Positions 1-62,927 of a DNA stretch of 64,000 nucleotides are shown here, one piece after another (position 1 is the first letter of the stretch; every line of letters begins with the position of its first letter). Under the pieces are notes generated by a model. The model saw only the letters and a list, made by a program, of their open reading frames with translations. It had not been told where the DNA came from and searched no databases. Both the position numbers and the translations under genes were made by a program. The stretch covers positions 200,781 to 264,780 of the forward strand of contig JANQOB010000009.1 in assembly GCA_028279275.1 (NCBI GenBank), written 5' to 3'. Source of the stretch: Gammaproteobacteria bacterium. Its GTDB lineage: Bacteria; Pseudomonadota; Gammaproteobacteria; UBA4575.

Positions 1-474
1 TGCCGGGTTTCCTAAAGATTCACAAAATACGGCTTTTGTTTTGTCATCTATTGCAGCAGCCATGGCATCAATGTCGCGATAGTCTACGAAGCGGACCTCA
101 ATTCCTAGTTTTGGCAGTGTATGTGCAAAAAAGTTATAGGTACCGCCATATAAGGTGGCTACTGATACGATATTGTCGCCTTGCTCAGCTAAGGCAAAAA
201 TTGCGTAAGAGATTGCAGCCATGCCGGATGACAAACCTAAAGCCCCCACACCTCCTTCCATGGCAGCGATACGTTGTTCTAATACCGCTGTGGTGGGGTT
301 CATAATGCGTGTATAGATATTGCCTTCAACTTTTAAGTCAAATAAATCTGCACCATGTTGTGTGTTATCAAATGCATATGAAGTGGTTTGATAAATAGGT
401 ACTGCAACCGCTTTTGTAGTGGGGTCAGGGCTATAACCTGCATGTATTGCTTGAGTTTCAATTTTCATAATCGT
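1..474 (-). CDS. metY: O-acetylhomoserine sulfhydrylase (aminocarboxypropyltransferase), N-terminal part; the gene runs off the window start
   Basis: Reverse-complement translation from the ATG at 472-474 gives [60 protein letters not shown]..., a typical PLP-dependent MetY/Cys-Met-metabolism N-terminus. An AGAGG Shine-Dalgarno lies 8 nt upstream. Confidence 0.75.
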
Positions 475-630: not shown

Positions 631-713
631 GACCTAGAAGCTTAAAGGGCGGTCATCGCTTTAGCAGAATTTTTTAGTCGCCCTGCAAGTTGTTGAATTA
701 AATCAGCGACATA
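631..713. repeat. ~85-nt intergenic repeat element, copy A (gacctagaagc...tcatcgctttagcag...GTCGC-n24-GCGAC hairpin...ataa)
   Basis: About 90% identical to 61504-61587 (copy B). Contains a 5-bp inverted repeat GTCGC/GCGAC enclosing cctgcaagttgttgaattaaatca. Confidence 0.5.
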
Positions 714-806
714 ACCAAGAGGTTAGTAAGTAAAAATGCTAGGGGTATTTTTAGTTGATGTCAATAACTGGGTTATTAGTGGCTAAGTATATCTTTGCAT
801 TTAGTA

Positions 807-2493: not shown

Positions 2494-3603
2494 TCAGCTT
2501 ATATCATTTGCTTCAATTAAGGCTACTAATTCATCGCCGATAAGATCTTTCTTCCAGCTAGATAGAATATCCAGCTCACGTTTTCCGCGAATGAGTTTTT
2601 CAACAACACTACGAGTGGCAAGTAGACTAGGCGCAATATTCAATTGTTCGGCACGTTCGCGTACAAAACTTTGCGCTAATTTAACCAGTTTGCGCTGAGC
2701 ACTATTTAGAGGTCCTATAGTGCTTGTCGTAGGCCAATCATATTCTGGTATTTTTAGTGCTTCGTTAATTTCTAGAATTAATGTTTCAGCATATGGAATA
2801 TGTTCTTCAGTAATAATTTCTAAAGAGCTGAATGCATTGATATCAGTTGGTTGTTCTATGGCTAAGTTACGTAATATTTTATCACTAAGAATCCATCGAC
2901 GAGGTTTATTCTCAGTCATAGCTTGTTGTTCACGCCATTTAGCAAGTTGTTTTAAAATATTTAATTGATTGGAATTAAGTTTTCCTGCACCTTTAACTGT
3001 TTTCCAGACTTTATCAGTATTTATTATATATTTATCAATAGAGGCTAAATTATTGCACTCAAAGTCTGCCCAATGGCTGCGACCATTTTCACCTAATTTA
3101 GTTTTTAAAGACTGATAAATTTCAGCTAAATATTTGACGTCATCAACAGCATATTTTAGTTCTTTACTGGTTAATGGTCTGCGTTCCCAGTTTGTTCTAG
3201 AAAGTGATTTATCAAGTTCAATATTACAAATTTCGGATACTAATTGTGCATAACTTACTTGTTCTCCATAGCCTAGTAGGCTGGCAGCAATTTGAGTATC
3301 AAACATTGGCGTAGGTACTGCATCGAATAAATTGACAAAAATCTCGAGATCTTGGCTAGCCGAATGAAAAATTTTAGTAATAGAGGGTTGATATAGTAAT
3401 TTTTTTAATGAAGATAAGTTACTAATTGCTAAGGTATCTATGCATACTAGTTCCTGTTCGGACGCAATTTGAATTAAACATAAGCTTGGATAGAACGTCT
3501 TTTCGCGTATAAACTCAGTATCCAGTGCAAGCCAATCTACATTGGAGGATGCTGAACAAAATGTTTCTAAATCTCTGGTAGATGTGATTAATTTATATTC
3601 CAT
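2494..3603 (-). CDS. rnd: ribonuclease D
   Basis: MEYKLITSTRDLETFCSASSNVDWLALDTEFIREKTFYPSLCLIQIA matches the E. coli RNase D N-terminus (MNYQMITTDDAL...ALDTEFVRTRTYYPQLGLIQL). Start placed at the internal Met at 3603; the first Met at 3648 would add a non-homologous 15-aa extension. Confidence 0.85.
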   Translation of the reverse strand: MEYKLITSTRDLETFCSASSNVDWLALDTEFIREKTFYPSLCLIQIASEQELVCIDTLAISNLSSLKKLLYQPSITKIFHSASQDLEIFVNLFDAVPTPMFDTQIAASLLGYGEQVSYAQLVSEICNIELDKSLSRTNWERRPLTSKELKYAVDDVKYLAEIYQSLKTKLGENGRSHWADFECNNLASIDKYIINTDKVWKTVKGAGKLNSNQLNILKQLAKWREQQAMTENKPRRWILSDKILRNLAIEQPTDINAFSSLEIITEEHIPYAETLILEINEALKIPEYDWPTTSTIGPLNSAQRKLVKLAQSFVRERAEQLNIAPSLLATRSVVEKLIRGKRELDILSSWKKDLIGDELVALIEANDIS

Positions 3604-6163: not shown

Positions 6164-6646
6164 CTAGAACATCAAGACTTTTTTACTCACGGCCCGCATA
6201 ACTAAATAAATCCAAGGCCAAACAATAACGCTCGTGACTACAGGTGCCCAGTAGACCCAGGTTTTAGGGTCTTCGCCTAATATTCCCAATATCCATAGCG
6301 ACAAACTCATATAAGGCAATAAGATCATGCCGATAAACATCGCTTGTTGATGCAATGGATATACTCGCACGCGTTGATGAAAACGAATTGCAATATAAGC
6401 TGTGATCGCAAACCCTAGTGCGTGTTGACCTAATAGAGCACCTTGAATGACATCTACGCATAATCCTAATATCCAAGCGATGCCGACACCGACTTTTTTT
6501 GGAATAGTAATATTCCAATAGATGAGGGCTAGGGCAATCCATTCAGGTCGGTAAGGACGAGCCCAATCAGGTAAAGGAATGAGCATGAGTATCATCGCCA
6601 CAATGAGGCTTGCAAAAATGATTAAAAATATTGGTCGACTATTCAT
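6164..6646 (-). CDS. mreD: rod shape-determining protein MreD
   Basis: Polytopic 160-aa membrane protein immediately downstream of mreC with a 4-nt overlap; synteny mreBCD. Confidence 0.8.
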   Translation of the reverse strand: MNSRPIFLIIFASLIVAMILMLIPLPDWARPYRPEWIALALIYWNITIPKKVGVGIAWILGLCVDVIQGALLGQHALGFAITAYIAIRFHQRVRVYPLHQQAMFIGMILLPYMSLSLWILGILGEDPKTWVYWAPVVTSVIVWPWIYLVMRAVSKKVLMF

Positions 6647-7626: not shown

Positions 7627-8691
<1,065 letters not shown>

Positions 8692-8803
8692 TTAATTATT
8701 CGAGAGTTAGCGTACTCTATCAGTGGCTAAAATTTTGGGCAAGCCATTAAATGTGCCGCATAAGTGTGGTAGTTTGCCGTTCGTTCATTTATATATAAGT
8801 ACT

Positions 8804-9091
8804 ATGTCGATCACACCAGAAGAAGTTCTAAAAATTGCCAACCTAGCTCGATTGCAAATCAAGCCTGATGAAGTTGAGCAATATGCAAAAGATTTATCCA
8901 ACATTATTCATTTGGTTGAGCAAATGAATGCAGTGGATACTAAAGATATACAGCCGATGGCGCACCCTTTAGATGCAACACAACGTTTGCGCGAAGACGA
9001 AGTCAAAGAAGAAAATCAGCGTGAAAAATTCCAAACAATTGCTCCAGCAGCAGAGCAAGGCCTTTATTTGGTACCAAAAGTAATTGAGTAA
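8804..9091 (+). CDS. gatC: Asp/Glu-tRNA(Asn/Gln) amidotransferase subunit C
   Basis: MSITPEEVLKIANLARLQIKPDEV... is a typical GatC N-terminus. Start taken at the internal ATG at 8804; the track's upstream extension is non-homologous. Confidence 0.9.
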   Translation: MSITPEEVLKIANLARLQIKPDEVEQYAKDLSNIIHLVEQMNAVDTKDIQPMAHPLDATQRLREDEVKEENQREKFQTIAPAAEQGLYLVPKVIE

Positions 9092-9251
9092 ACATAATGA
9101 ATCTTTTACGCTTATACTTCGTTCTTCTTTTTCTCAAATGCTCATGTACTAGCCTGTACACTGCGTTTTTCGAAAAACTCGGGCCTCGTATAAACCTAAA
9201 ATCTTCAATTATGGAATAGGTTCTAGATATTTTTTTATCTAGTCAAATAAT

Positions 9252-10712
9252 TTGAATATGTACGATCTTTCTGTTTCACAACTTGCTGAAGGTTTACGCA
9301 ATGGTGATTTTTCCAGTGTTGAGTTAACCCAACACTGTGTTGAGCGCATGCAAAAATTTAGTGATCTAAATGCATTTATCACTGAACTTGGAGAGCGTGC
9401 GATTTTACAAGCGCAAAACGCAGATAAATTAATTAAAGAAAAAAACCATGGTCCATTAACAGGGGTGCCGATAGCAACAAAAGATATTTTTTGTATGTAT
9501 GGTGTTAAAACATCTTGTGGTTCTAAAATGTTAGATAGCTTTATTGCACCATATGATGCAACCGTGACACACAAACTTGATCAAGCAGGTTGTGTCACAT
9601 TGGGTAGAACCAATATGGATGAATTTGCAATGGGTTCATCAAACGAGACTAGCTACTATGGACCGGTTAAGAACCCTTGGAATAAAGATTATGTGCCGGG
9701 TGGATCATCAGGGGGTTCAGCTGCCGCAGTTGCTGCGCGTATTGCACCTCTCGCTACTGGGACGGATACTGGTGGTTCTATTCGGCAACCCGCAGCCCTT
9801 TGCGGCATTACCGGCTTGAAGCCAACTTATGGAAGAGTCTCGCGCTACGGCATGATTGCTTATGCGTCCAGCCTTGATCAGGGTGGTCCGTTTGGCGCTT
9901 CAGCAGAAGACTGCGCGTATTTACTTCAGGCCATGGCAGGTTTTGATGAAAAAGACTCTACCAGTCTGGATAAAGCGGTCCCTGACTACACACAATCACT
10001 GAATGATTCGATAAAAGGGAAGGTGATCGGTATCCCTGAAGAATATTTTAGTGAAGGGTTGGGTGTTGGTGTAAAAGAAATTATACAGACCGCCATTACT
10101 TGGTACGAACAACAAGGTTGTGAAATAAAAAGTATCAGCTTGCCAAATACAGATTTAGCGATACCGGCATACTACGTAATTGCACCTGCAGAATGTTCAT
10201 CTAATTTATCTCGTTATGACGGTGTGCGATTTGGTTATCGTTGTGATGACCCTAAAGATATGCGTGATCTATATGATCGTAGTCGTAGTGAAGCATTTGG
10301 GGATGAGGTAAAACGCAGGATTATGATTGGTACATACGCCCTATCAGCAGGCTATTACGATGCATACTATTTAAAAGCACAGCAAATAAGACATTTAATT
10401 AGTGATGATTTTAAAAAAGCTTTTGAACAAGTCGACGTAATTTTGGGTCCAACAACACCTGAACCCGCTTTTAAGATTGGTGAAAAAACCAATGACCCGG
10501 TCACTATGTACTTATCTGATATCTATACCATTTCTATTAACTTAGCAGGTTTACCGGCAATTTCGATTCCATGTGGTCAGCAAGGAGGTTTGCCAGTAGG
10601 CATGCAGCTAATTGGAAATTATTTTGCAGAAGAAACACTGCTCAATTTTGCGCACCAGTATCAATTGGATACCGATTGGCATCAGCAAATTCCTCCTGGT
10701 TTTAATGAATAA
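9252..10712 (+). CDS. gatA: Asp/Glu-tRNA(Asn/Gln) amidotransferase subunit A
   Basis: Amidase signature [13 protein letters not shown], ...[24 protein letters not shown]..., matching GatA. Confidence 0.95.
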
Positions 10713-10727
10713 GGATTGCAAATAAAG

Positions 10728-12161
10728 ATGCAGTGGGAAACCGTAATTGGATTAGAAATTCATGTACAGCTGGCTACCCAGAGCAAGATTTTTTCGGGTG
10801 CTTCAACAGCTTATGGAGCTGAACCCAATACGCAAGCATGCGCGGTAGATTTAGGTTTACCTGGTGTATTGCCGGTATTAAACAAAGAAGCTGTAAAAAT
10901 GGCAGCGATGTTTGGATTTGCAGTAGATGCCACCGTTGCGGAGCGTTCTGTATTTGCGCGAAAGAATTATTTTTACCCTGATTCACCTAAAGGTTATCAA
11001 ATTAGTCAATTTGAGTTGCCGATCGTAGAACATGGTAAGCTGGAAATTGTTTTAAATAATGGTGAATGTAAAACAATAGGTATCACGCGTGCTCATCTCG
11101 AAGAGGATGCAGGAAAATCATTACACGAAGAGTTCCCAGATTCTACAGGCATCGATTTAAATCGATGTGGAACGCCATTAATTGAAATTGTATCTGAGCC
11201 TGACATGCGATCTGCTGAAGAGGCCGTTGCTTATATGAAAAAGATACATTCTATTGTTCGTTATTTGGGTATTTCTGACGGCAACATGCAGGAGGGTTCT
11301 TTTCGCTGTGATGCTAATGTTTCTATGCGGCCGAAAGGGCAAAAAGAATTCGGTACGCGCACGGAAACGAAAAACCTAAACTCTTTTAGATTTGTTGAGC
11401 GTGCTATCAACCATGAAATAGAACGTCAAATTGATGTGTTAGAAGATGGTGGCGAAGTTGTGCAAGAAACTCGACTTTACGATGCCAATAAAGATGAAAC
11501 ACGTTCAATGCGCAGTAAAGAAGAAGCGAATGATTATCGCTATTTCCCCGATCCTGATCTGTTACCGGTAGTAATTAATAGTGAAGAGCTTGAGGCCATA
11601 AAGAAAGAACTCCCGGAACTCCCAGCAGCAAAAAATGCTCGTTTTAAGCAATCCTATGAACTTAATGATTACGATGCCGAAAATCTAGTCATGGATAAAG
11701 ACACTGCTGATTATTTTGAGAATATTGTTAATGTTGGAAACGTTAAAGCAAAATTGGCAGCGAATTGGGTATTAGGCGAACTCACTGCTGCTTTGAATCA
11801 ACATGATATTGAGATAATGAATAGTCCTGTTTCAGCTAAAATGATGTCTGAGCTATTAATCCGAATTGAAGACAATACGCTTTCAAATAAAATTGCCAAA
11901 GAAGTGTTTCATGCGATGTGGGCAGGTGAAGGAAGTGTAGATGAAATTATTGAAGCTAAAGGCTTAAAACAAATTACTGATAGCAGTGAAATTGAGGCGT
12001 TAGTGGATCAAGTGATTGCTGATAATCCTGAGCAGGTAGAGCAATACAAATCAGGCAAAGATAAAGTATTTGGTTTCTTTGTCGGACAAGTCATGAAGCT
12101 TTCTAAAGGCAAAGCCAACCCGCAGCAAGTAAATGAATTGTTAAAAGCTAAATTACAATAA
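10728..12161 (+). CDS. gatB: Asp/Glu-tRNA(Asn/Gln) amidotransferase subunit B
   Basis: [15 protein letters not shown] is a canonical GatB start. The track ORF starts at an upstream TTG at 10716; the ATG at 10728 is preferred. Confidence 0.95.
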
Positions 12162-40519: not shown

Positions 40520-41077
40520 TTAAATCGGTCCGACCATAAGAATCATTAAACCTGGCGGGATTTGATTGGGTGACATGCTTTGATGCGCTTCATTCATTTC
40601 GATCGACAGAGAAAGACCAGAATTTTTACATTTTTCATTTAAATTTTTATTTGTACTGATGTTACTTTGTTTAGGTAAAGTCATTCCAGCAGCAAGATGT
40701 AATTTAGGATTAAGCGAACTTTGGTCTTCTAAAAAGATTTTGTATGGAAAAGAATCGTTCGAAAGTGTTGATGAGATTTTATCAACCTTTAACTCATAAG
40801 GTACTCCAGCGTTTTGATCAAAGCCATGGTGAGTAATACAAAATAGTTTTGAATTTACAGGTTCAAGTATTTTTGACTGATCCAATAATAATTCACTTGG
40901 ACTCACGGTATTGAGTGTTTGACTGACGTAAACTGAAATATCAACTGATGCAGTAGAAGACTTGCCTCGTTTACCTTGTGAAGCCGCTAATACCGCATTA
41001 CTTGTGAATACAAGTAATGATAATAAAAGAAATAATTTAAGTGTTAATTTTAAATTAATTTTTACGGTAGTATCCAT
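40520..41077 (-). CDS. hypothetical exported protein
   Basis: Signal peptide MDTTVKINLKLTLKLFLLLSLLVFTSNAVLAA; Ser/Asn-rich. Followed by a 465-bp AT-rich spacer. Confidence 0.45.
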   Translation of the reverse strand: MDTTVKINLKLTLKLFLLLSLLVFTSNAVLAASQGKRGKSSTASVDISVYVSQTLNTVSPSELLLDQSKILEPVNSKLFCITHHGFDQNAGVPYELKVDKISSTLSNDSFPYKIFLEDQSSLNPKLHLAAGMTLPKQSNISTNKNLNEKCKNSGLSLSIEMNEAHQSMSPNQIPPGLMILMVGPI

Positions 41078-41570
41078 CTCACATTTCCAATATGCAAAGT
41101 ACACAGAAATGTGAGACCACTCGAAGAGATATATTGAATAACTATCTCGCTGCTTTATTCGGCGGTCCCGCTGCCTTAGATATTTTTTATTTGCGCACTT
41201 TTGACACGCAGCTTAGAAAAATAACCTTAGGTCGGTGACTTTGCGTCCCCATCTTTCAATGGGTTTGCCCTTTACATTTCTATGTAACGGCACCAACTGA
41301 ATAAAGTTGATTAATTGTTATTGTTTTAAACGATAATAAAAATCATTACATATAACTCTTCTAGCAAACAAGTAACCTTATAATTTGATTAGAGTTACAT
41401 GATAAATAGTAATGATTAAATAAATTAAAATGTTTTTTGAGAATGTGTAACGAATTAATTTTACTTATGTTTATTTGCTTAGATTTTTTACTAAAAATGT
41501 GAGCAAATTCCGTTATAGTTGGTAACGTATTGAAAATTTTCTTTCAAAATCATTCAAAAGGAGAGTAAAT

Positions 41571-43026: not shown

Positions 43027-45606
43027 TTAATTTACCTGTTTTAATCCTTCGATTGGTACTGGTGAACCCATGGCAAATCCTTGTGCATAATCCACCCCCA
43101 GCTCGCGCAGCATTTCAACAACTTCTTCACTCTCAGCGCACTCCGCAATAGTGCCGATTCCCATAATGTGTCCTACCTGATTAATGGCTTCTACCATTGC
43201 ATGGTCAATCGTGTCATCGATCATGTCGTGAACGAAGCTGCCATCAATTTTTAAATAATCAACGGGAAGATTTTTTAAGTATGTAAAAGAAGACAATCCA
43301 CTACCAAAATCATCTAATGCGAACCGACAACCTATGCGTTTGAGTTCTAGAATTAACTGGCTAACTTGATCTAGATTACTTATCGCGGCAGTTTCAGTAA
43401 TTTCGAAACAAACATTAGAAGGTTCAATTTCAGTTTTTTTGATTTCACCTTTGATAAAATCTAATAGTGAATCATCATTTAGTGAATTTCCGGATAAATT
43501 TATTGCGATCTGTACTCCTGATTCTTTACCAAATATGTCGTTGTAGCTTCGAAATGCGGTGCTAATCATCCAGCGGTCTAGGCTGGTCATTAATCCATAG
43601 CGTTCAGCAGCAGGAATAAAACTTGCTGGCATAATTAAATCGCCTTTAGGATCGGTAAGTCGAATTAATAATTCGTAATGTAAAGATTCTTGGTTCTGAG
43701 GTGAAAGGGCAACTATGGGTTGACAATAAATACGAAAACGATCTTCTTGTAGAGCTCCTGTAACACCCGCGGCGCGCATCATTTCAGTGTGTCTGCGTGT
43801 CAGTTCATCGTCTTCTTGTCTGTAAATATGTAATTTGTTACGACCATGGTCTTTGGCGGTAAAACATGCGAGCTCTGCACGCGTTAACATATGTGCAGGG
43901 TCTTGAGAGTTTTTATCAATCGTAATTAGGCCAATGCTAATACCGATTTCAAAATGTTGGTCGCGCCATTTAAATGTGGCGTTACGAATAGTATTTATCA
44001 GTTCTTGTGCAATTAGTTTAGCTTGATCGACCGTGGTGTTTACGAGTAACAGTGAAAATTCATCGCCACCTAAACGAGCAAATATATCAATACTGCGTAT
44101 ATGCTCTTTCATATGCTCCGCAGCTTGTTTAAGAATAATGTCTCCTGCTGTATGCCCAGCTTGTGCATTAATAATCTTGAACTGATTTAAATCCAGGTAA
44201 CACAATACATGTTGCACATCATGTGTTGCTGCGCTTGAAATTGCTTCTTCCAGTCGATACTCAAATTCTTGTCTGTTCAACAAGCCGGTTAATGAGTCGT
44301 GAGAGGCTTGGTGGCTAATTTCTTGGGTAAGTCTTTTGGTTTCTGAGGCATCTTTAAAAATGACTACTAATCCACCGCTCTCGAGGTTTAGTGAGCTGCT
44401 CGGTGTGATGGATAATTCAATAGGATGCTCATTATTAAATCTATCCAGTAAAACAAGATTATTTTCAGACTCAATTGGTTTACCTGTATCTAAGCATTCT
44501 TTGCCTAAGTTTGTAATGCGTTCACGCGTGTTAGCATCGATAAGTTTAAGAATATTATCTATATGATTACCTTTTGCCTCGTAGCCAGGCCAGCCAGTTA
44601 GGCCCTCAGCTACAGGATTCATCGATTCTATTTTGCAGTTTATATCGGTAGCAACTACACCATCTTTAAGTAGTTTTAAAGTAATTCGATTGCGCTGTTT
44701 TTCTTGCTCAAGTTTATTTTCGGTTACAGCCGTTTTGGTAATATCTTGTAAAATTAAATTAAAGAAATTTTGGTCGTTTTCATTTTCATTATAAGCAGAA
44801 ACACGAAAAAACTTTATTGTGCTATCAAGGCCAACAAATTTAATGTCTGGTATAAGCTCATTGGCATCATCATCGCAGGTATTAATAATGTGATGCAGTT
44901 TTATGATTTCAGACTGTTCAAATACTAGCGATAGGGGTGTTCCCAATGAATCTTGTTCATCCAATCCCAACATCATTGCCGCGGGTGTGTTGAGTTCAAC
45001 TATTGTATCTTCTTCGTCTACACTAAGTAGCCCAATTGCAGCCACTTCTAAAATAGTGTCTAGTTTGTTATCGGAGATAGGCTGGTCTTGGAATGGGCTA
45101 ACCTCGAGCTCACTGGTGGCAGAAGAATCAAAATCGATAAGTTTTTCAGTTACGGGCTTAGATTCTTCAATCGAGCTTTTTAATGCATTGGGTAAAGCCT
45201 TAATATTTGCAGTTGACCATACTTCTACTTCACCAGCAAGCGCAGGATTTTCTTTGATAGTTTCATTTATTAGGTCAAAGTCAGTGGGCTTGCGTAATAA
45301 AAATATTTTTATGTTTTTATCATGTTCGAGAATCCAATTAATAACATGCAAAGGCTCTTTCATATGATGTCCAAGGACAATTACTCGGCTATCAATGTGT
45401 CCATCATGTAGAATTTCCGTAAGTTGTTGTTCGCTAGCCAGGTTAGAAATTGCAAGCGGCGGCGGGGTATGACGACAAAGATAAGTCCACAAATCCTTGC
45501 CGACATTAACAAGAGATACTTTTATCGCCATACTTGAGAACTGGCTGGAAGATGTTTGGTTTGCGCTCAATTTGTTTTTGTAGCGTTTGTCGATAGTTCG
45601 AATCAC
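43027..45606 (-). CDS. PAS-GGDEF-EAL c-di-GMP turnover protein with N-terminal unknown domain
   Basis: GGDEF (RLGGDEFSLL). EAL motifs (QPIVAL, EITETAAI, DDFGSG). PAS-like repeats. Confidence 0.85.
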   Translation of the reverse strand: MIRTIDKRYKNKLSANQTSSSQFSSMAIKVSLVNVGKDLWTYLCRHTPPPLAISNLASEQQLTEILHDGHIDSRVIVLGHHMKEPLHVINWILEHDKNIKIFLLRKPTDFDLINETIKENPALAGEVEVWSTANIKALPNALKSSIEESKPVTEKLIDFDSSATSELEVSPFQDQPISDNKLDTILEVAAIGLLSVDEEDTIVELNTPAAMMLGLDEQDSLGTPLSLVFEQSEIIKLHHIINTCDDDANELIPDIKFVGLDSTIKFFRVSAYNENENDQNFFNLILQDITKTAVTENKLEQEKQRNRITLKLLKDGVVATDINCKIESMNPVAEGLTGWPGYEAKGNHIDNILKLIDANTRERITNLGKECLDTGKPIESENNLVLLDRFNNEHPIELSITPSSSLNLESGGLVVIFKDASETKRLTQEISHQASHDSLTGLLNRQEFEYRLEEAISSAATHDVQHVLCYLDLNQFKIINAQAGHTAGDIILKQAAEHMKEHIRSIDIFARLGGDEFSLLLVNTTVDQAKLIAQELINTIRNATFKWRDQHFEIGISIGLITIDKNSQDPAHMLTRAELACFTAKDHGRNKLHIYRQEDDELTRRHTEMMRAAGVTGALQEDRFRIYCQPIVALSPQNQESLHYELLIRLTDPKGDLIMPASFIPAAERYGLMTSLDRWMISTAFRSYNDIFGKESGVQIAINLSGNSLNDDSLLDFIKGEIKKTEIEPSNVCFEITETAAISNLDQVSQLILELKRIGCRFALDDFGSGLSSFTYLKNLPVDYLKIDGSFVHDMIDDTIDHAMVEAINQVGHIMGIGTIAECAESEEVVEMLRELGVDYAQGFAMGSPVPIEGLKQVN

Positions 45607-59373: not shown

Positions 59374-60000
59374 ATGAATAGAAAAGCGCTGGAAGTACTG
59401 GCGGGCGGTAGATACCTTGAGGACACGGTGATACATGACAAGGATCGAGACCCTGAATTTGAACGTCATATTCGTAAAATACTTGAGCTCATAGGTGAAG
59501 ATCCAACTCGTGAAGGGCTATTGGATACCCCAAAGCGCGTCTCTAAAGCGATGCATTTTTTAACGGAAGGATATCACCTCGGAGTTGAAGATGTTGTTCG
59601 TGATGCATTGTTCGAAGAACAATGTGAAGAAATGGTGATTGTTAAGGACGTCGAATTTTATTCTTTATGTGAACATCACATGCTGCCATTTTTCGGTCGT
59701 GCACATGTCGGGTATTTACCAAAAAATAAGGTCATTGGTCTAAGCAAAATTGCACGTGTAGTAGATGTATTTGCAAGACGTTTACAAGTTCAAGAAAGAC
59801 TCACTTCGCAAATTGCAAAAGGATTAATTGAAGTACTAGATGCGCATGGCGTCGCAGTAGTAGTTGAAGCGAGTCACTTCTGCATGGTGATGCGTGGCGT
59901 ACAAAAACAAAATAGTAAAACGGTTACCAGCTCGATGCTTGGTGCATTTCGAGATGATTCACGTTCACGCTCAGAATTTATGGAGCATATTCGCGATTAA
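59374..60000 (+). CDS. folE: GTP cyclohydrolase I
   Basis: 208 aa. ...[31 protein letters not shown]... is the FolE catalytic motif. Confidence 0.95.
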
Positions 60001-60322
60001 GTGAGCGCCTTGACGCGCGAATACGATATCCATCAGGGATGATGCAATAGATTAAAGTACTGTTGCTTTAAAAAATGAACAGGTTGGGAATTTAGTTTTT
60101 AATTTCAAAAGTCTTTGCTTTCGAAAAAAATATTTCCTTTTTGGAAATAGTTGCAAACACTCCAAAGCAGATAATTATTAGCTTTTAAGAAATTAATATC
60201 TCGTATAAAGAGAGACTTACCTCTTTTCTTTCCACCAATTTTAATCAATGTATAATTTAAACAACAACAATGGATAAGTGTCTTGAATTTCCATAAGTCA
60301 ATTAACTGATACTGAACAGAGG

Positions 60323-60824: not shown

Positions 60825-61008
60825 GATCTACTCACAAACCAAAATGTGAACACACGGGAGTGCTTATATAACGTTCATCATGCGCGATGTATCCGTTTCA
60901 TTTCTTAGCTAGAATGTCCGCTATCGACTGAAAGCGAACAATTATTGAATTTAAAACAGAGAGCCAATATCAACTCAGCACCTAGCTAAGTTTTCAATTG
61001 TTGCTAAG

Positions 61009-61467
61009 CTATAATTTAGACGCATAGACTTGTTTTACATATTCCTTTGTAAATATTCTTGTAACAAGTCTTAAAAATTCTACATCACATTCTGAATTTG
61101 CAGAGTTAATAATATCTTCAAAATCAGAATTTTCTGTTTTACTTTTATTGTAAAAACTAATTAAAGACTCTTTTACTTCCGGTAGTAATTGTTTTGCGAG
61201 CTTCTGTGTAGATTCTATGTTCTTAGGCAAAACATTTTTATTTTCTAAGCTATTTGCTAGACCAGATGTTAGTAAATCATCTATAAGAATTTTATCTAAA
61301 CCTGGGTGCGAAATCGCTTCTGCGCATGCAAGTGCGGCAGCTGTTATATCGCGTGTGTATGCTATGGACGTATACCCTTTTGGTGTGAAGGTATCCGTCG
61401 CGTTACATTTCGTGCGTTGTTTAAATGGAAGCCAGTCTGTAATTGAAAGATTAAATGGCATAGTCAA
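61009..61467 (-). CDS. hypothetical protein (152 aa)
   Basis: ORF with coding-like composition. Repeat copy B lies in its 5' region. Confidence 0.45.
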   Translation of the reverse strand: MTMPFNLSITDWLPFKQRTKCNATDTFTPKGYTSIAYTRDITAAALACAEAISHPGLDKILIDDLLTSGLANSLENKNVLPKNIESTQKLAKQLLPEVKESLISFYNKSKTENSDFEDIINSANSECDVEFLRLVTRIFTKEYVKQVYASKL

Positions 61468-61503
61468 ATACTCCTTGCTTCTAAATTTTGAGTACGCTGA
61501 TAT

Positions 61504-61587
61504 GACTTAGAAGCAACAAGTACTATCATCGCTTTAGCAGTATTTTGTTGTCGCCCTGCAAGTTGTTTATTAAATCAGCGACATAAA
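61504..61587. repeat. ~85-nt intergenic repeat element, copy B
   Basis: gacttagaagc...tcatcgctttagcagtattttgttGTCGCcctgcaagttgtttattaaatcaGCGACataa, about 90% identical to 631-713. Confidence 0.5.
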
Positions 61588-61591
61588 AAAA

Positions 61592-61623
61592 CCCACTATA
61601 GTACAGACTACAGCGGGCTTTTT
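61592..61623. terminator. bidirectional hairpin + T-tract between repeat copies B and C
   Basis: AAAAAA-cccactatagta...cagactacagcggg-cTTTTT; imperfect stem. Confidence 0.4.
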
Positions 61624-61632
61624 AATAACCTC

Positions 61633-61690
61633 TCGCTTTAGCAGTACTTAGTTATGCGCCCGCAAGCTGTAGCTCAAATCGGCGCAATAT
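61633..61690. repeat. divergent third copy (C) of the repeat element
   Basis: tcgctttagcagtacttagttatGCGCCcgcaagctgtagctcaaatcgGCGC: same cgctttagcag box, spacer and GC-clamped hairpin architecture. Confidence 0.35.
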
Positions 61691-61991
61691 AGTCTTAACA
61701 TATTATATGAATTGCACTTAGTCAAACTTCTTAATAATTTTAATTCATAATACAAGTAAAGTACTATGTATAGAGGACATTCATAAAATTAATATCAATT
61801 AGATACGCAATAAAATTGTAGCGTCAGAAATATATTAATGTCCGCTATTGGCTGGCAGAAATACGCTATTCGGCAACAGCTCCTGCATAGCGCTAATAAG
61901 TTACATCCATGTAACGATGCAGTTTTTTTTAGCACTTCCGCCATCCATGATGGTCGAAGTGGGGATAATCTAACTACAAGGTTTTATAAAT

Positions 61992-62456
61992 ATGACTACA
62001 CAAATACATCATCTAACTGCGAATGATGTAACAATCATGAGATCTATGCTGACCACCTTTGGTGAAGTATTCAATGATATGAATACCTATACTGAAATGC
62101 AGCCCAATTCAAACTACTTGGAAAAATTACTAAATAACGATTCATTTATCGCATTGGCCGCGTTAAAGAATAATAATGTTGTTGGTGCTATGGCAGCATA
62201 TGAGCTTGTAAAGTTTGAGCAAGAACGGAGTGAAATTTACATTTATGATCTTGCAGTAGATAAATCCCATCGGCGTAAAGGTATTGCAACAAGCTTGATA
62301 GAAGAGCTAAAAAATATTGCTGTTAAACGAGGAGCCTACGTAATTTTTGTTCAGGCTGACAAAGGTATTGAGGATGAACCAGCCATTGCTCTCTATAATA
62401 AACTTGGAGAAACTTGTGAAGACGTATTTCACTTCGATATTCAAGTTAATAATTAG
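61992..62456 (+). CDS. AAC(3)-I-family aminoglycoside N(3)-acetyltransferase homologue (GNAT)
   Basis: [88 protein letters not shown] versus AAC(3)-Ia as recalled: [86 protein letters not shown]. Roughly 50% identity over the GNAT core. Confidence 0.8.
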
Positions 62457-62486
62457 AAAGCAGATATTTAATTAGAGATTAATATC

Positions 62487-62927
62487 ATGAAAGATCTAAA
62501 AAAAATATTTCGTAACCTAGAAAAAGAAATGAGTCGATCAAGCTGGTTTGATGACGGCTGGGAAATTTACAACCGCGGTGTTTATTTGCAGCTATACAAG
62601 TTTAATTGGCATAACCATAATCAGGAAGGGATTCATTTTGAGACTTTTATAGAAGCTAGAGAAGTCAAACAAAAAGCATTCCCAATCTGTCTGCATGCGG
62701 AGCAGGATTGTCCTTCACAGAAGGAATTCGTTCAGGAGTTTTTAGTATTAGAAAAAGATCGTATAAACAACTGGAAGGGTTATCAGATCGGTGAGGGTTA
62801 CAATATTTGCAAAAGAAAGCTCCCTCTCAATTTTAAGAATCTAGAACAACGACTACTCGAAGAGTTCAATAGGCTTCGACAGTTAGAAAAGGGGATAGAA
62901 CAGGCATTAAGTCTGGTGCAAGCTTAG
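62487..62927 (+). CDS. hypothetical protein (146 aa)
   Basis: 30 nt downstream of the AAC(3)-like gene on the same strand. No family recognised. Confidence 0.45.
   Translation: MKDLKKIFRNLEKEMSRSSWFDDGWEIYNRGVYLQLYKFNWHNHNQEGIHFETFIEAREVKQKAFPICLHAEQDCPSQKEFVQEFLVLEKDRINNWKGYQIGEGYNICKRKLPLNFKNLEQRLLEEFNRLRQLEKGIEQALSLVQA

Follow-up and report, generated by a model that had tools for sequence, protein, structure and literature searches.

A member of the AAC(3)-I family of aminoglycoside acetyltransferases encoded on the chromosome of an uncultured low-GC gammaproteobacterium

A 64-kb stretch of gammaproteobacterial DNA (hereafter the window, to whose numbering all coordinates refer unless another contig is named) contains a short open reading frame (ORF) that a first-pass annotation had likened to the gentamicin acetyltransferase AAC(3)-Ia. 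This locus raises the question of whether the ORF encodes a true AAC(3)-I enzyme and, if so, whether the gene is an intrinsic gene of its host, an integron cassette, or a progenitor of the mobile aac(3)-I genes. Our analysis indicates that the ORF very likely encodes a bona fide AAC(3)-I-family GNAT, chromosomal, accessory, and host-adapted, and that it is neither an integron cassette nor the direct progenitor of a clinical allele. The gene, referred to below as aac, and the site preceding it are as follows.

61978..61981, plus strand: weak Shine-Dalgarno-like AAGG, 10 nt before the aac ATG, as read from the sequence
61992..62456, plus strand: coding sequence of the aac(3)-I-family aminoglycoside 3-N-acetyltransferase, ATG to TAG, 154 aa

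The 154-aa ORF was found exactly where it had been placed, at 61992-62456 on the plus strand. Its product scored 221.4 bits with the NCBIfam model NF033083 (AAC_3_I equivalog; cutoff, 200), and the alignment ran end to end, with residues 5-152 on model positions 1-145 of 145. The second-best NCBIfam family reached only 35 bits, and Pfam indicated an ordinary GNAT domain (Acetyltransf_1, E 1.3e-16). When the Protein Data Bank (PDB) was searched with phmmer, the best match was 5hmn, "AAC3-I" (E 1e-58), followed by AAC(3)-Ib (4yfj, E 1e-45) and AAC(3)-Ia (6bvc, 9mgs, and 1bo4, E 1e-40 to 1e-43). The protein was also compared with annotated clinical aac(3)-Ia, -Ib, -Id, and -Ih genes from plasmids. 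The blastp identities to the named enzymes were 61.7% (Id), 58.7% (Ia), 55.9% (Ib), and 55.6% (Ih), and the tblastn matches to the plasmid-annotated genes were consistent with these values. The identity to AAC(3)-Ia of about 50% that had been estimated by eye was therefore too low, as the value is 58.7% for Ia and 55.6-61.7% overall.

Sequence alignment indicated that the protein keeps 62 of the 65 columns invariant in Ia, Ib, Id, and Ih; the three changed positions are D59K, A101S, and Y119F. The motif that binds the acetyl-CoA pyrophosphate (R/Q-x-x-G-x-G/A) is intact as R94-R-K-G-I-A99, and the C-terminal tail is conserved in sequence (E143-D-V-F-H-F-D-I). As for the motifs quoted in the first-pass annotation, residues 80-89, HRRKGIAT (93-100), and residues 114-123 read as given, and the segment 129-139 contains "EPA" instead of "DPA". 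In a neighbor-joining tree, the protein nested in an environmental clade on the Id side. Membership of the ORF at 61992-62456 in the AAC(3)-I family was established by every test run. The original call of an AAC(3)-I-like GNAT is thus borne out by the NF033083 score, the PDB matches, and the 56-62% identity to named alleles.

Among the named enzymes, AAC(3)-Id, which like AAC(3)-Ie is carried on class 1 integron cassettes in Salmonella and Vibrio, is the closest allele (61.7% over the full length, with similar length). The two proteins have all GNAT motif residues in common, together with a two-residue insertion ("IEDE/VEDQ") before the EPAIALY segment. In contrast, aac(3)-Id is a plasmid cassette with an attC site of about 80 nt next to intI1, whereas the window gene is chromosomal, has neither element, and shows a low-GC, host-like codon usage. 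AAC(3)-Ia (1BO4, 6BVC, and 9MGS) is 58.7% identical and has the same fold (rmsd about 1.0 Å over 123-125 residues), the conserved acetyl-CoA motif, and the tail glutamate in "E-[DE]-V-x-HFDI". It lacks the two-residue insertion, is borne on integrons and plasmids, and has proven gentamicin, sisomicin, and fortimicin resistance. The best solved relative is HMB0005 "AAC3-I" (PDB 5HMN) from an uncultured soil metagenome, with about 64% identity and a Foldseek rmsd of 1.3 Å; it is likewise environmental and non-clinical but belongs to a different, higher-GC clade of the family tree.

Chromosomal genes annotated by NCBI as "AAC(3)-I family" in Halomonas, Billgrantia, Microbulbifer, Photobacterium, Thioalkalivibrio, and cyanobacteria encode proteins with 62-69% identity. 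These genes are also non-clinical, but their host lineages are other than that of the window. The name "AAC(3)-I family aminoglycoside N-acetyltransferase" is already in use at NCBI for such proteins. The relatives form at least about 8000 clusters at 90% identity. Of 599 candidate stretches taken from species-representative genomes, 578 code for relatives, with hosts among halomonads, Microbulbifer, Photobacterium, Methylophaga, many cyanobacteria, Gemmatimonadota, and Acidobacteriota. The ORF is a new, ordinary member of a very large and already curated family.

An AlphaFold2 monomer model built on 37 homologs had a pLDDT above 78 for residues 1-119 and below 50 for the 35 C-terminal residues (120-154). 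In AAC(3)-Ia, the C-terminal tail is strand-swapped in the dimer, and its glutamate contacts the drug (PMC12378234); the low pLDDT of residues 120-154 is as expected for such a tail when modelled as a monomer. With this model, the top eleven Foldseek matches in the PDB were all AAC(3)-I structures (5HMN, 6BVC, 1BO4, 4YFJ, and 9MGS/9MGU), with E values of 1e-15 to 1e-17 and mostly an rmsd of 1.0-1.5 Å. These were followed by meta-AAC0020 and then by RimI-type GNATs.

Subsequently, we consider the genome in which the gene resides. The window is a normal chromosome segment with gatA/gatB, PEP synthase (ppsA), GTP-PEPCK (pckG), asnB, argG, mlaA, and folE, and also holds a gene for a GGDEF-EAL protein, two tRNAs, and a c-di-GMP-I riboswitch. 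The description of aac as chromosomal is upheld by this context (gatA/gatB, ppsA, pckG, asnB, argG, and folE). The host genome has a low GC content (about 39%), and GatB places it in an uncultured gammaproteobacterial lineage seen only in metagenomes and metagenome-assembled genomes (MAGs); the nearest named GatB relative is that of Acidihalobacter (74%). The closest AAC sequences were the following.

P0001, 100% aa identity: same genome, including Logan contig L001
P0002, 91% aa identity: 1023-bp ENA metagenome contig
P0003, 90% aa identity: L002 (= L004), a 1.28-Mb contig of a "Gammaproteobacteria bacterium" MAG
P0004, 84% aa identity: L003

The next AAC match after these was 73% identical, so that the AAC sequences at 84% identity or more were four among the matches listed, all from uncultured low-GC gammaproteobacteria. 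By comparison, roughly 13-16 relatives of GatB or FolE were found at 88% or more. Between the window genome and the L002 MAG, GatB is 94% and AAC 90% identical.

The genes upstream of aac form a block whose synteny (argF, argD, asnB, RNase T, argG, mlaA, orf268, and folE) is kept in four relatives at 72-77% nucleotide identity. Collinearity with L209, L210, and L212 ends at about 59990-60091 of the window, that is, at the folE stop codon, and what follows differs among the genomes. Because folE is not on the 1.28-Mb contig of the L002 MAG, this islet was compared with the other relatives.

59374..60000, plus strand: folE (GTP cyclohydrolase I), last gene of the conserved syntenic block, with the variable islet after its stop codon
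Window, after folE: at least 11 kb including aac, orf146, and the genes for DUF1289, methyltransferase, LysR, and SbtA/P-II proteins
L212 and L213, after folE: directly a rotamase gene
L210, after folE: DUF454 and GATase genes
L209, after folE: an ion-channel gene

The position of aac differs in each of the three closest genomes, where it occupies three unrelated loci, and all flanking genes are unrelated apart from a block containing orf146. The DNA homology is confined to the following segments.

Window 61992-62458, plus strand: aac; matches L002 10001-10467 (89.7%) and L003 3098-3554 (83.8%)
Window 62484-62927, plus strand: orf146 block; matches L002 11093-11536 (78% nucleotide identity)
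Window 62487..62927, plus strand: orf146, hypothetical protein, 30 nt downstream of aac, 81% aa identity to its L002 counterpart

From these alignments, orf146 appears to be a second module shared with L002, and it is possibly co-transcribed with aac. The small neighboring ORFs to which the first-pass annotation had assigned no family are real (orf152 and orf146), and a 63-aa DUF1289 protein is encoded nearby as well. Neither orf146 nor orf152 had a family in Pfam, NCBIfam, or PADLOC, and searches of the same three collections with orf146, orf152, the DUF1289 protein, and a 166-aa ORF of L002 gave no informative family that links aac to its neighbors.

The composition of aac (GC 35.5%, GC3 0.29, CAI 0.67) is like that of the host core genes (GC3 0.26-0.35, CAI 0.63-0.72). 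A recent horizontal import of aac was rejected, since its GC, GC3, and CAI resemble those of core genes and the AAC divergence is in line with that of GatB. These results suggest that the gene is a long-term resident of the accessory pool of the lineage. Its accessory status follows from the variable islet after folE, the three unrelated loci, and the small number of close AAC sequences. The term "intrinsic", in the sense of a conserved lineage gene, consequently does not fit: every relative has a different cargo after folE, aac occupies three unrelated loci, and the four AAC sequences at 84% or more (among the matches listed) compare with about 13-16 GatB/FolE relatives at 88% or more. Judged by composition and position, aac is best described as a compositionally native but positionally mobile accessory gene in a hypervariable islet.

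What the protein does in this host can be approached by analogy with AAC(3)-Ia and AAC(3)-Ib (PMC12378234). It would form a homodimer strand-swapped at the C-terminus and bind acetyl-CoA through the beta4-alpha3 "R-x-x-G-x-A" segment (R94-R-K-G-I-A99). The acetyl group would then be moved to the amino group at position 3 of the 2-deoxystreptamine ring in gentamicin, sisomicin, and aminoglycosides of the fortimicin type (PMC12378234), and this acetylation would inactivate the aminoglycoside. On the same analogy, we infer that the protein is expressed in its host and would have the AAC(3)-I resistance profile. According to PMC8956665, the environmental GNAT "meta-AACs" recovered from soil generally show resistance activity, with an efficiency comparable to that of clinical enzymes, which supports the expectation that the window protein is active. 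As for its expression signals, the weak Shine-Dalgarno-like AAGG precedes the start codon, and a promoter scan upstream of aac gave nothing above the shuffled background (10 found, 11.4 expected).

Many chromosomal AACs of environmental bacteria confer low-level resistance only or have other physiological substrates. The mycobacterial AACs reviewed in PMC6363676 are an example. Similarly, the window protein could be an AAC(3)-I enzyme by sequence whose natural role is to acetylate another amine, such as a metabolite or a natural aminocyclitol, with resistance being incidental, weak, or absent. This would accord with the extremely wide occurrence of the family in non-clinical bacteria (cyanobacteria, Gemmatimonadota, Acidobacteriota, and halomonads), with the compositionally ancient state of aac in its host lineage, with the lack of resistance genes adjoining it, and with the low catalytic efficiency of AAC(3)-Ia itself (kcat/KM about 0.05 µM-1 s-1, PMC12378234). 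However, the protein keeps 62 of the 65 residues that do not vary among proven resistance enzymes, the PDB title of its closest solved relative (5HMN) names an aminoglycoside acetyltransferase from a soil metagenome, and the soil meta-AACs have resistance activity (PMC8956665). We therefore regard a natural role on another amine as rather unlikely. It is compatible with the assignment as an AAC(3)-I acetyltransferase, as it concerns the physiological role of the protein and not its biochemistry.

The next question is whether aac belongs to an integron. Each of the clinical aac(3)-Ia, -Ib, and -Id genes retrieved lies as a cassette in a class 1 integron array, with intI1 annotated next to the Ia and Id arrays, and their attC sites are 80-110 nt long with canonical GCCTAAC...GTTAGRC cores. 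An attC site was sought as an R''-L''...L'-R' structure of at least about 55 nt with RYYYAAC/GTTRRRY cores at the 3' end of the ORF. No such site was seen by eye 3' of the window aac, where the stop codon is followed by no more than an 11-nt half palindrome. A tblastn search with IntI1 (E<=10) gave no tyrosine recombinase in the 64-kb window, L001, L002 (about 20 kb of the MAG), or L003.

The half palindrome belongs to a family of 28-nt palindromes with the consensus ATGTCCGC-N12-GCGGACAT, of which the window has three whole or partial copies.

60914..60941, plus strand: best-preserved copy (ATGTCCGCTATCGACTGAAAGCGAACAA), differing from the consensus at 2 positions; chance would give 0.01 matches
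61838..61865, plus strand: degenerate copy (ATGTCCGCTATTGGCTGGCAGAAAT...), 126 nt upstream of aac
62457..62467, plus strand: right-half remnant (AAAGCAGATAT), directly after the aac stop codon

The degenerate upstream copy has an intact counterpart in L002 (9940-9967), 33 nt upstream of aac, and a full palindrome lies directly after aac in both L002 (10467-10494) and L003 (3554-3582). In L002, aac stands in a row of about nine small ORFs that all point the same way. Nearly all of them end at or overlap a palindrome, and palindromes occur at the stop codons of about ten ORFs. The density there is about 10 palindromes in 4.3 kb, against about 0-1 in the other 16 kb; in the window it is 3 in 1.6 kb, against about none elsewhere. 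The 166-aa ORF that parts aac and orf146 in L002 is missing from the window, where the half palindrome lies exactly at the junction. A further copy is found in the variable segment after folE in L210.

When metagenome contigs were scanned, the palindrome was found in more than 120 contigs, 80 of which were read as loci, with 0.68 copies per kb. These contigs have a GC content of 49-65% and, judged by their sample series, appear to come mostly from soil. The copies on the soil contigs are often doublets 17 nt apart, occur in two loop variants, and lie between unrelated genes. As a separate observation, the REP-like palindrome family is common to low-GC and high-GC soil bacteria.

These data bear directly on the idea that aac might be carried as a cassette in a chromosomal integron or in a CALIN (an attC cluster without integrase). 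Such a status would match that of every named mobile aac(3)-I gene inspected, each being a cassette of a class 1 integron, and the run of about nine small co-directional ORFs around the L002 aac, each followed by a conserved palindrome, resembles what it would predict. Nevertheless, IntI1 had no tblastn match in the window, L001, L002, or L003, the palindrome between the ORFs is only 28 nt long and lacks the R''/R' cores of attC (RYYYAAC...GTTRRRY), and it is also scattered, often as doublets, between unrelated genes in soil contigs. With neither integrase nor attC in the stretches examined, integron or CALIN status is effectively refuted, and we consider it very improbable.

An origin of a clinical allele at this locus fares still worse. 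The window gene belongs to the same family as the mobile alleles, of which its nearest is AAC(3)-Id, itself cassette-borne, with which it has the two-residue insertion in common. Yet the identity is only 61.7% to Id and 56-59% to Ia, Ib, and Ih, and the environmental homologs that equal or surpass it in closeness to the clinical alleles number in the hundreds. Because the identity to the named mobile alleles is at most 62%, the status of direct progenitor is ruled out for Ia, Ib, Id, and Ih, and aac is almost certainly not the direct environmental progenitor of any clinically mobile aac(3)-I allele. Of the "progenitor or relative" proposed in the first-pass annotation, the relative stands, as one of at least about 8000 such clusters; the progenitor falls, given the identity of 62% or less and the lack of attC and integrase.

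The 28-nt element is better regarded as a family organized like REP/BIME-type extragenic palindromes than as attC sites, since it is short, present in many copies, intergenic, often located 3' of genes, and arranged in doublets. A literature search with the core sequence of the palindrome gave no match beyond primer coincidences. It could still be supposed that aac, orf146, and the small ORFs are modules of a cassette-like shuffling that is independent of integrases and uses the 3' palindromes as recombination or targeting sites. In line with this, the palindromes are concentrated in the accessory islets of L002 and the window, the homology between the genomes is confined to the single-gene blocks of aac and orf146, the 166-aa ORF is absent from the window with a half palindrome left at the aac/orf146 junction, and the variable post-folE segment of L210 carries a copy. 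On the other hand, the upstream palindrome lies outside the homology, which begins at the ATG, neutral divergence alone could give gene-limited homology, no dedicated enzyme was seen, and no ORF arrays accompany the soil copies. REP elements, moreover, commonly build up at the 3' ends of genes without moving them, which also counts against shuffling. Taken together, such a process seems improbable to us. If it were real, it would give environmental AAC(3)-I genes a means of packaging and movement that is separate from integrons, and in this uncultured gammaproteobacterial lineage palindrome modules would fill hot-spot islets, the post-folE islet being one of them. An accessory gene among REP/BIME-type palindromes is the reading that we prefer.

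Upstream of aac, the first-pass annotation had pointed out a repeat-rich spacer of 520 bp. The spacer is indeed there (524 bp, 61468-61991) with a two-copy direct repeat of 57 nt (61529-61585 and 61633-61689, 74% identical), but it belongs to the divergent orf152 and not to aac. The plus strand of the spacer gave an MFE z-score of -0.75, which is not significant. A structured element on the plus strand was consequently rejected, and the signal lies on the minus strand. The features concerned are listed below in the order of the minus strand, after the gene and the leader as a whole.

61009..61461, minus strand: orf152 (or orf150), divergent neighbor, ATG at 61461; also given as 61009-61467
61469..61725, minus strand: putative 5' leader of orf152, from a promoter-like site, RF00521/RF01726 alignments, an inverted repeat, and reading of the sequence
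61725->61697, minus strand: leader element 1, promoter-like TTGACT-17-TATGTT
61695->61617, minus strand: leader element 2, SAM-II-like aptamer 2
61627->61586, minus strand: leader element 3, predicted strong intrinsic terminator
61588->61524, minus strand: leader element 4, SAM-II-like aptamer 1
61522-61507/61484-61469, minus strand: leader element 5, putative anti-Shine-Dalgarno hairpin over AAGGAG (inverted repeat)

On the minus strand, both 57-nt repeats align over the full length to SAM-II-class models (RF00521, 25.2 bits; RF01726, 18.7 bits). All scores are below the gathering thresholds of these SAM-II/SAM_alpha models: 25.2, 19.2, and 13.2 bits for RF00521 (gathering, 36), and 18.7 and 13.1 bits for RF01726 (gathering, 44). 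The region E values of the SAM-II-class matches range from 8e-4 to 5e-3. A third, near-identical copy (640-719, minus strand; RF00521, 19.2 bits) lies upstream of a gene for a PLP enzyme of Cys/Met metabolism (Cys_Met_Meta_PP, E 9.5e-50). This gene is probably metY (O-acetylhomoserine sulfhydrylase), and metY is a classic SAM-II/SAM-V target. GAUUU(G/A)A, CUUGC, and UGCUAAAGCG are invariant in all three aptamer copies, and the P1 stems differ by compensatory changes (GCGCC/GGCGC in one copy, GUCGC/GCGAC in the others). In addition, the loop CUUGC(A/G)G and the 3' tail CUGC..AAG could base-pair with each other in the manner of the SAM-II pseudoknot. From the full-length SAM-II-class alignments on the minus strand, the conserved cores, and the metY-associated third copy, we read the spacer as a putative tandem SAM-II-like riboswitch leader of orf152 that has nothing to do with aac. 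The product of orf152 is a rare orphan protein, with relatives in 17 clusters at E<=1e-3 among 1.84 billion representatives.

The aac finding is real, the family call was right, and the gene is an ordinary one. Unless expression reveals an unusual substrate range, nothing clinical or mechanistic follows directly from it. Two by-products of the analysis are arguably of greater interest than aac itself, namely the SAM-II-like tandem that may control an orphan protein and the REP-like palindromes. For the family, the locus is one more data point in an established picture, in which gentamicin acetyltransferases of the AAC(3)-I type are of great age and abundance among environmental bacteria remote from the clinic; the host in this case is a previously uncultured low-GC gammaproteobacterial lineage.

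The repeat-rich spacer between aac, the AAC(3)-I-family acetyltransferase gene, and orf152 is, as judged from its sequence, a pair of tandem SAM-II-like aptamers forming the 5' leader of orf152. The features concerned in the window were as follows:
61469-61725, minus strand: orf152 5' leader with tandem SAM-II-like aptamers (Rfam matches below threshold)
61009-61461, minus strand: orf152/150, the gene below this tandem riboswitch-like leader
640-719, minus strand: third SAM-II-like aptamer (RF00521, 19.2 bits)
1-468, minus strand: Cys/Met-metabolism PLP enzyme gene, cut by the window start (E 9.5e-50)
41158-41279, minus strand: c-di-GMP-I riboswitch (71.7 bits)
62487-62927 (11096-11536 in the MAG contig L002): orf146, without known family

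In the direction of transcription, the leader runs from a promoter-like site through aptamer 2, an intrinsic terminator, and aptamer 1 to a hairpin sequestering the Shine-Dalgarno sequence, an order that resembles the tandem SAM-II/SAM-V arrangement reported for marine bacteria. Both aptamers scored below the Rfam thresholds (RF00521, 25.2 bits; RF01726, 18.7 bits) and keep the conserved cores, compensatory changes in P1, and pseudoknot potential. The third aptamer is near-identical to these two and lies about 170 nt upstream of the partial gene, the product of which is probably MetY; this location supports the riboswitch reading of the leader repeats. The SAM-II-like aptamers here appear to be a divergent variant missed by the Rfam gathering thresholds.

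The orf152/150 protein had no family match in Pfam, NCBIfam, or PADLOC, and a search of 1.84 billion representative proteins gave only 17 clusters at E ≤ 1e-3. This orphan protein is apparently under regulation by SAM. Separately, the c-di-GMP-I riboswitch was located upstream of a minus-strand ORF (40520-41104), with a gene for a PAS-GGDEF-EAL protein (43027-45606) nearby.

In the low-GC lineage, small accessory ORFs have members of a 28-nt palindrome family, ATGTCCGC-N12-GCGGACAT, at their stop codons. The sites recorded for the family were:
Window: 60914-60941, 61838-61865, 62457-62467
L002: within 7691-11584
L003 (contig with a related aac): 3554-3582, 6399-6426
L001 (contig of the window genome): 10452-10479
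L210 (relative collinear up to folE): 10834-10861
L088: 802-829

It was also observed in more than 120 metagenome contigs, apparently mostly from soil, as doublets 17 nt apart; the low-GC lineage and these contigs (49-65% GC) share it across very different GC backgrounds. The family is REP/BIME-like, and we found no earlier description of it.

Two genomes carry orf146 together with aac; the two genes lie side by side in the window and are separated by a single ORF in L002 (81% amino acid identity between the orf146 products). The 90% cluster of orf146 has seven members, mostly on short ENA contigs. A sequence of about 70 nt directly 3' of folE (...CATCAGGGATGATGC...; window 59990-60091) recurs in L210:
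10628-10721: copy
10890-10936: inverted copy
12086-12158: inverted copy

The inverted copies bracket both ends of a DUF454-GATase segment inserted in L210, and the sequence may mark the interval from folE to the rotamase gene as an insertion hot-spot.
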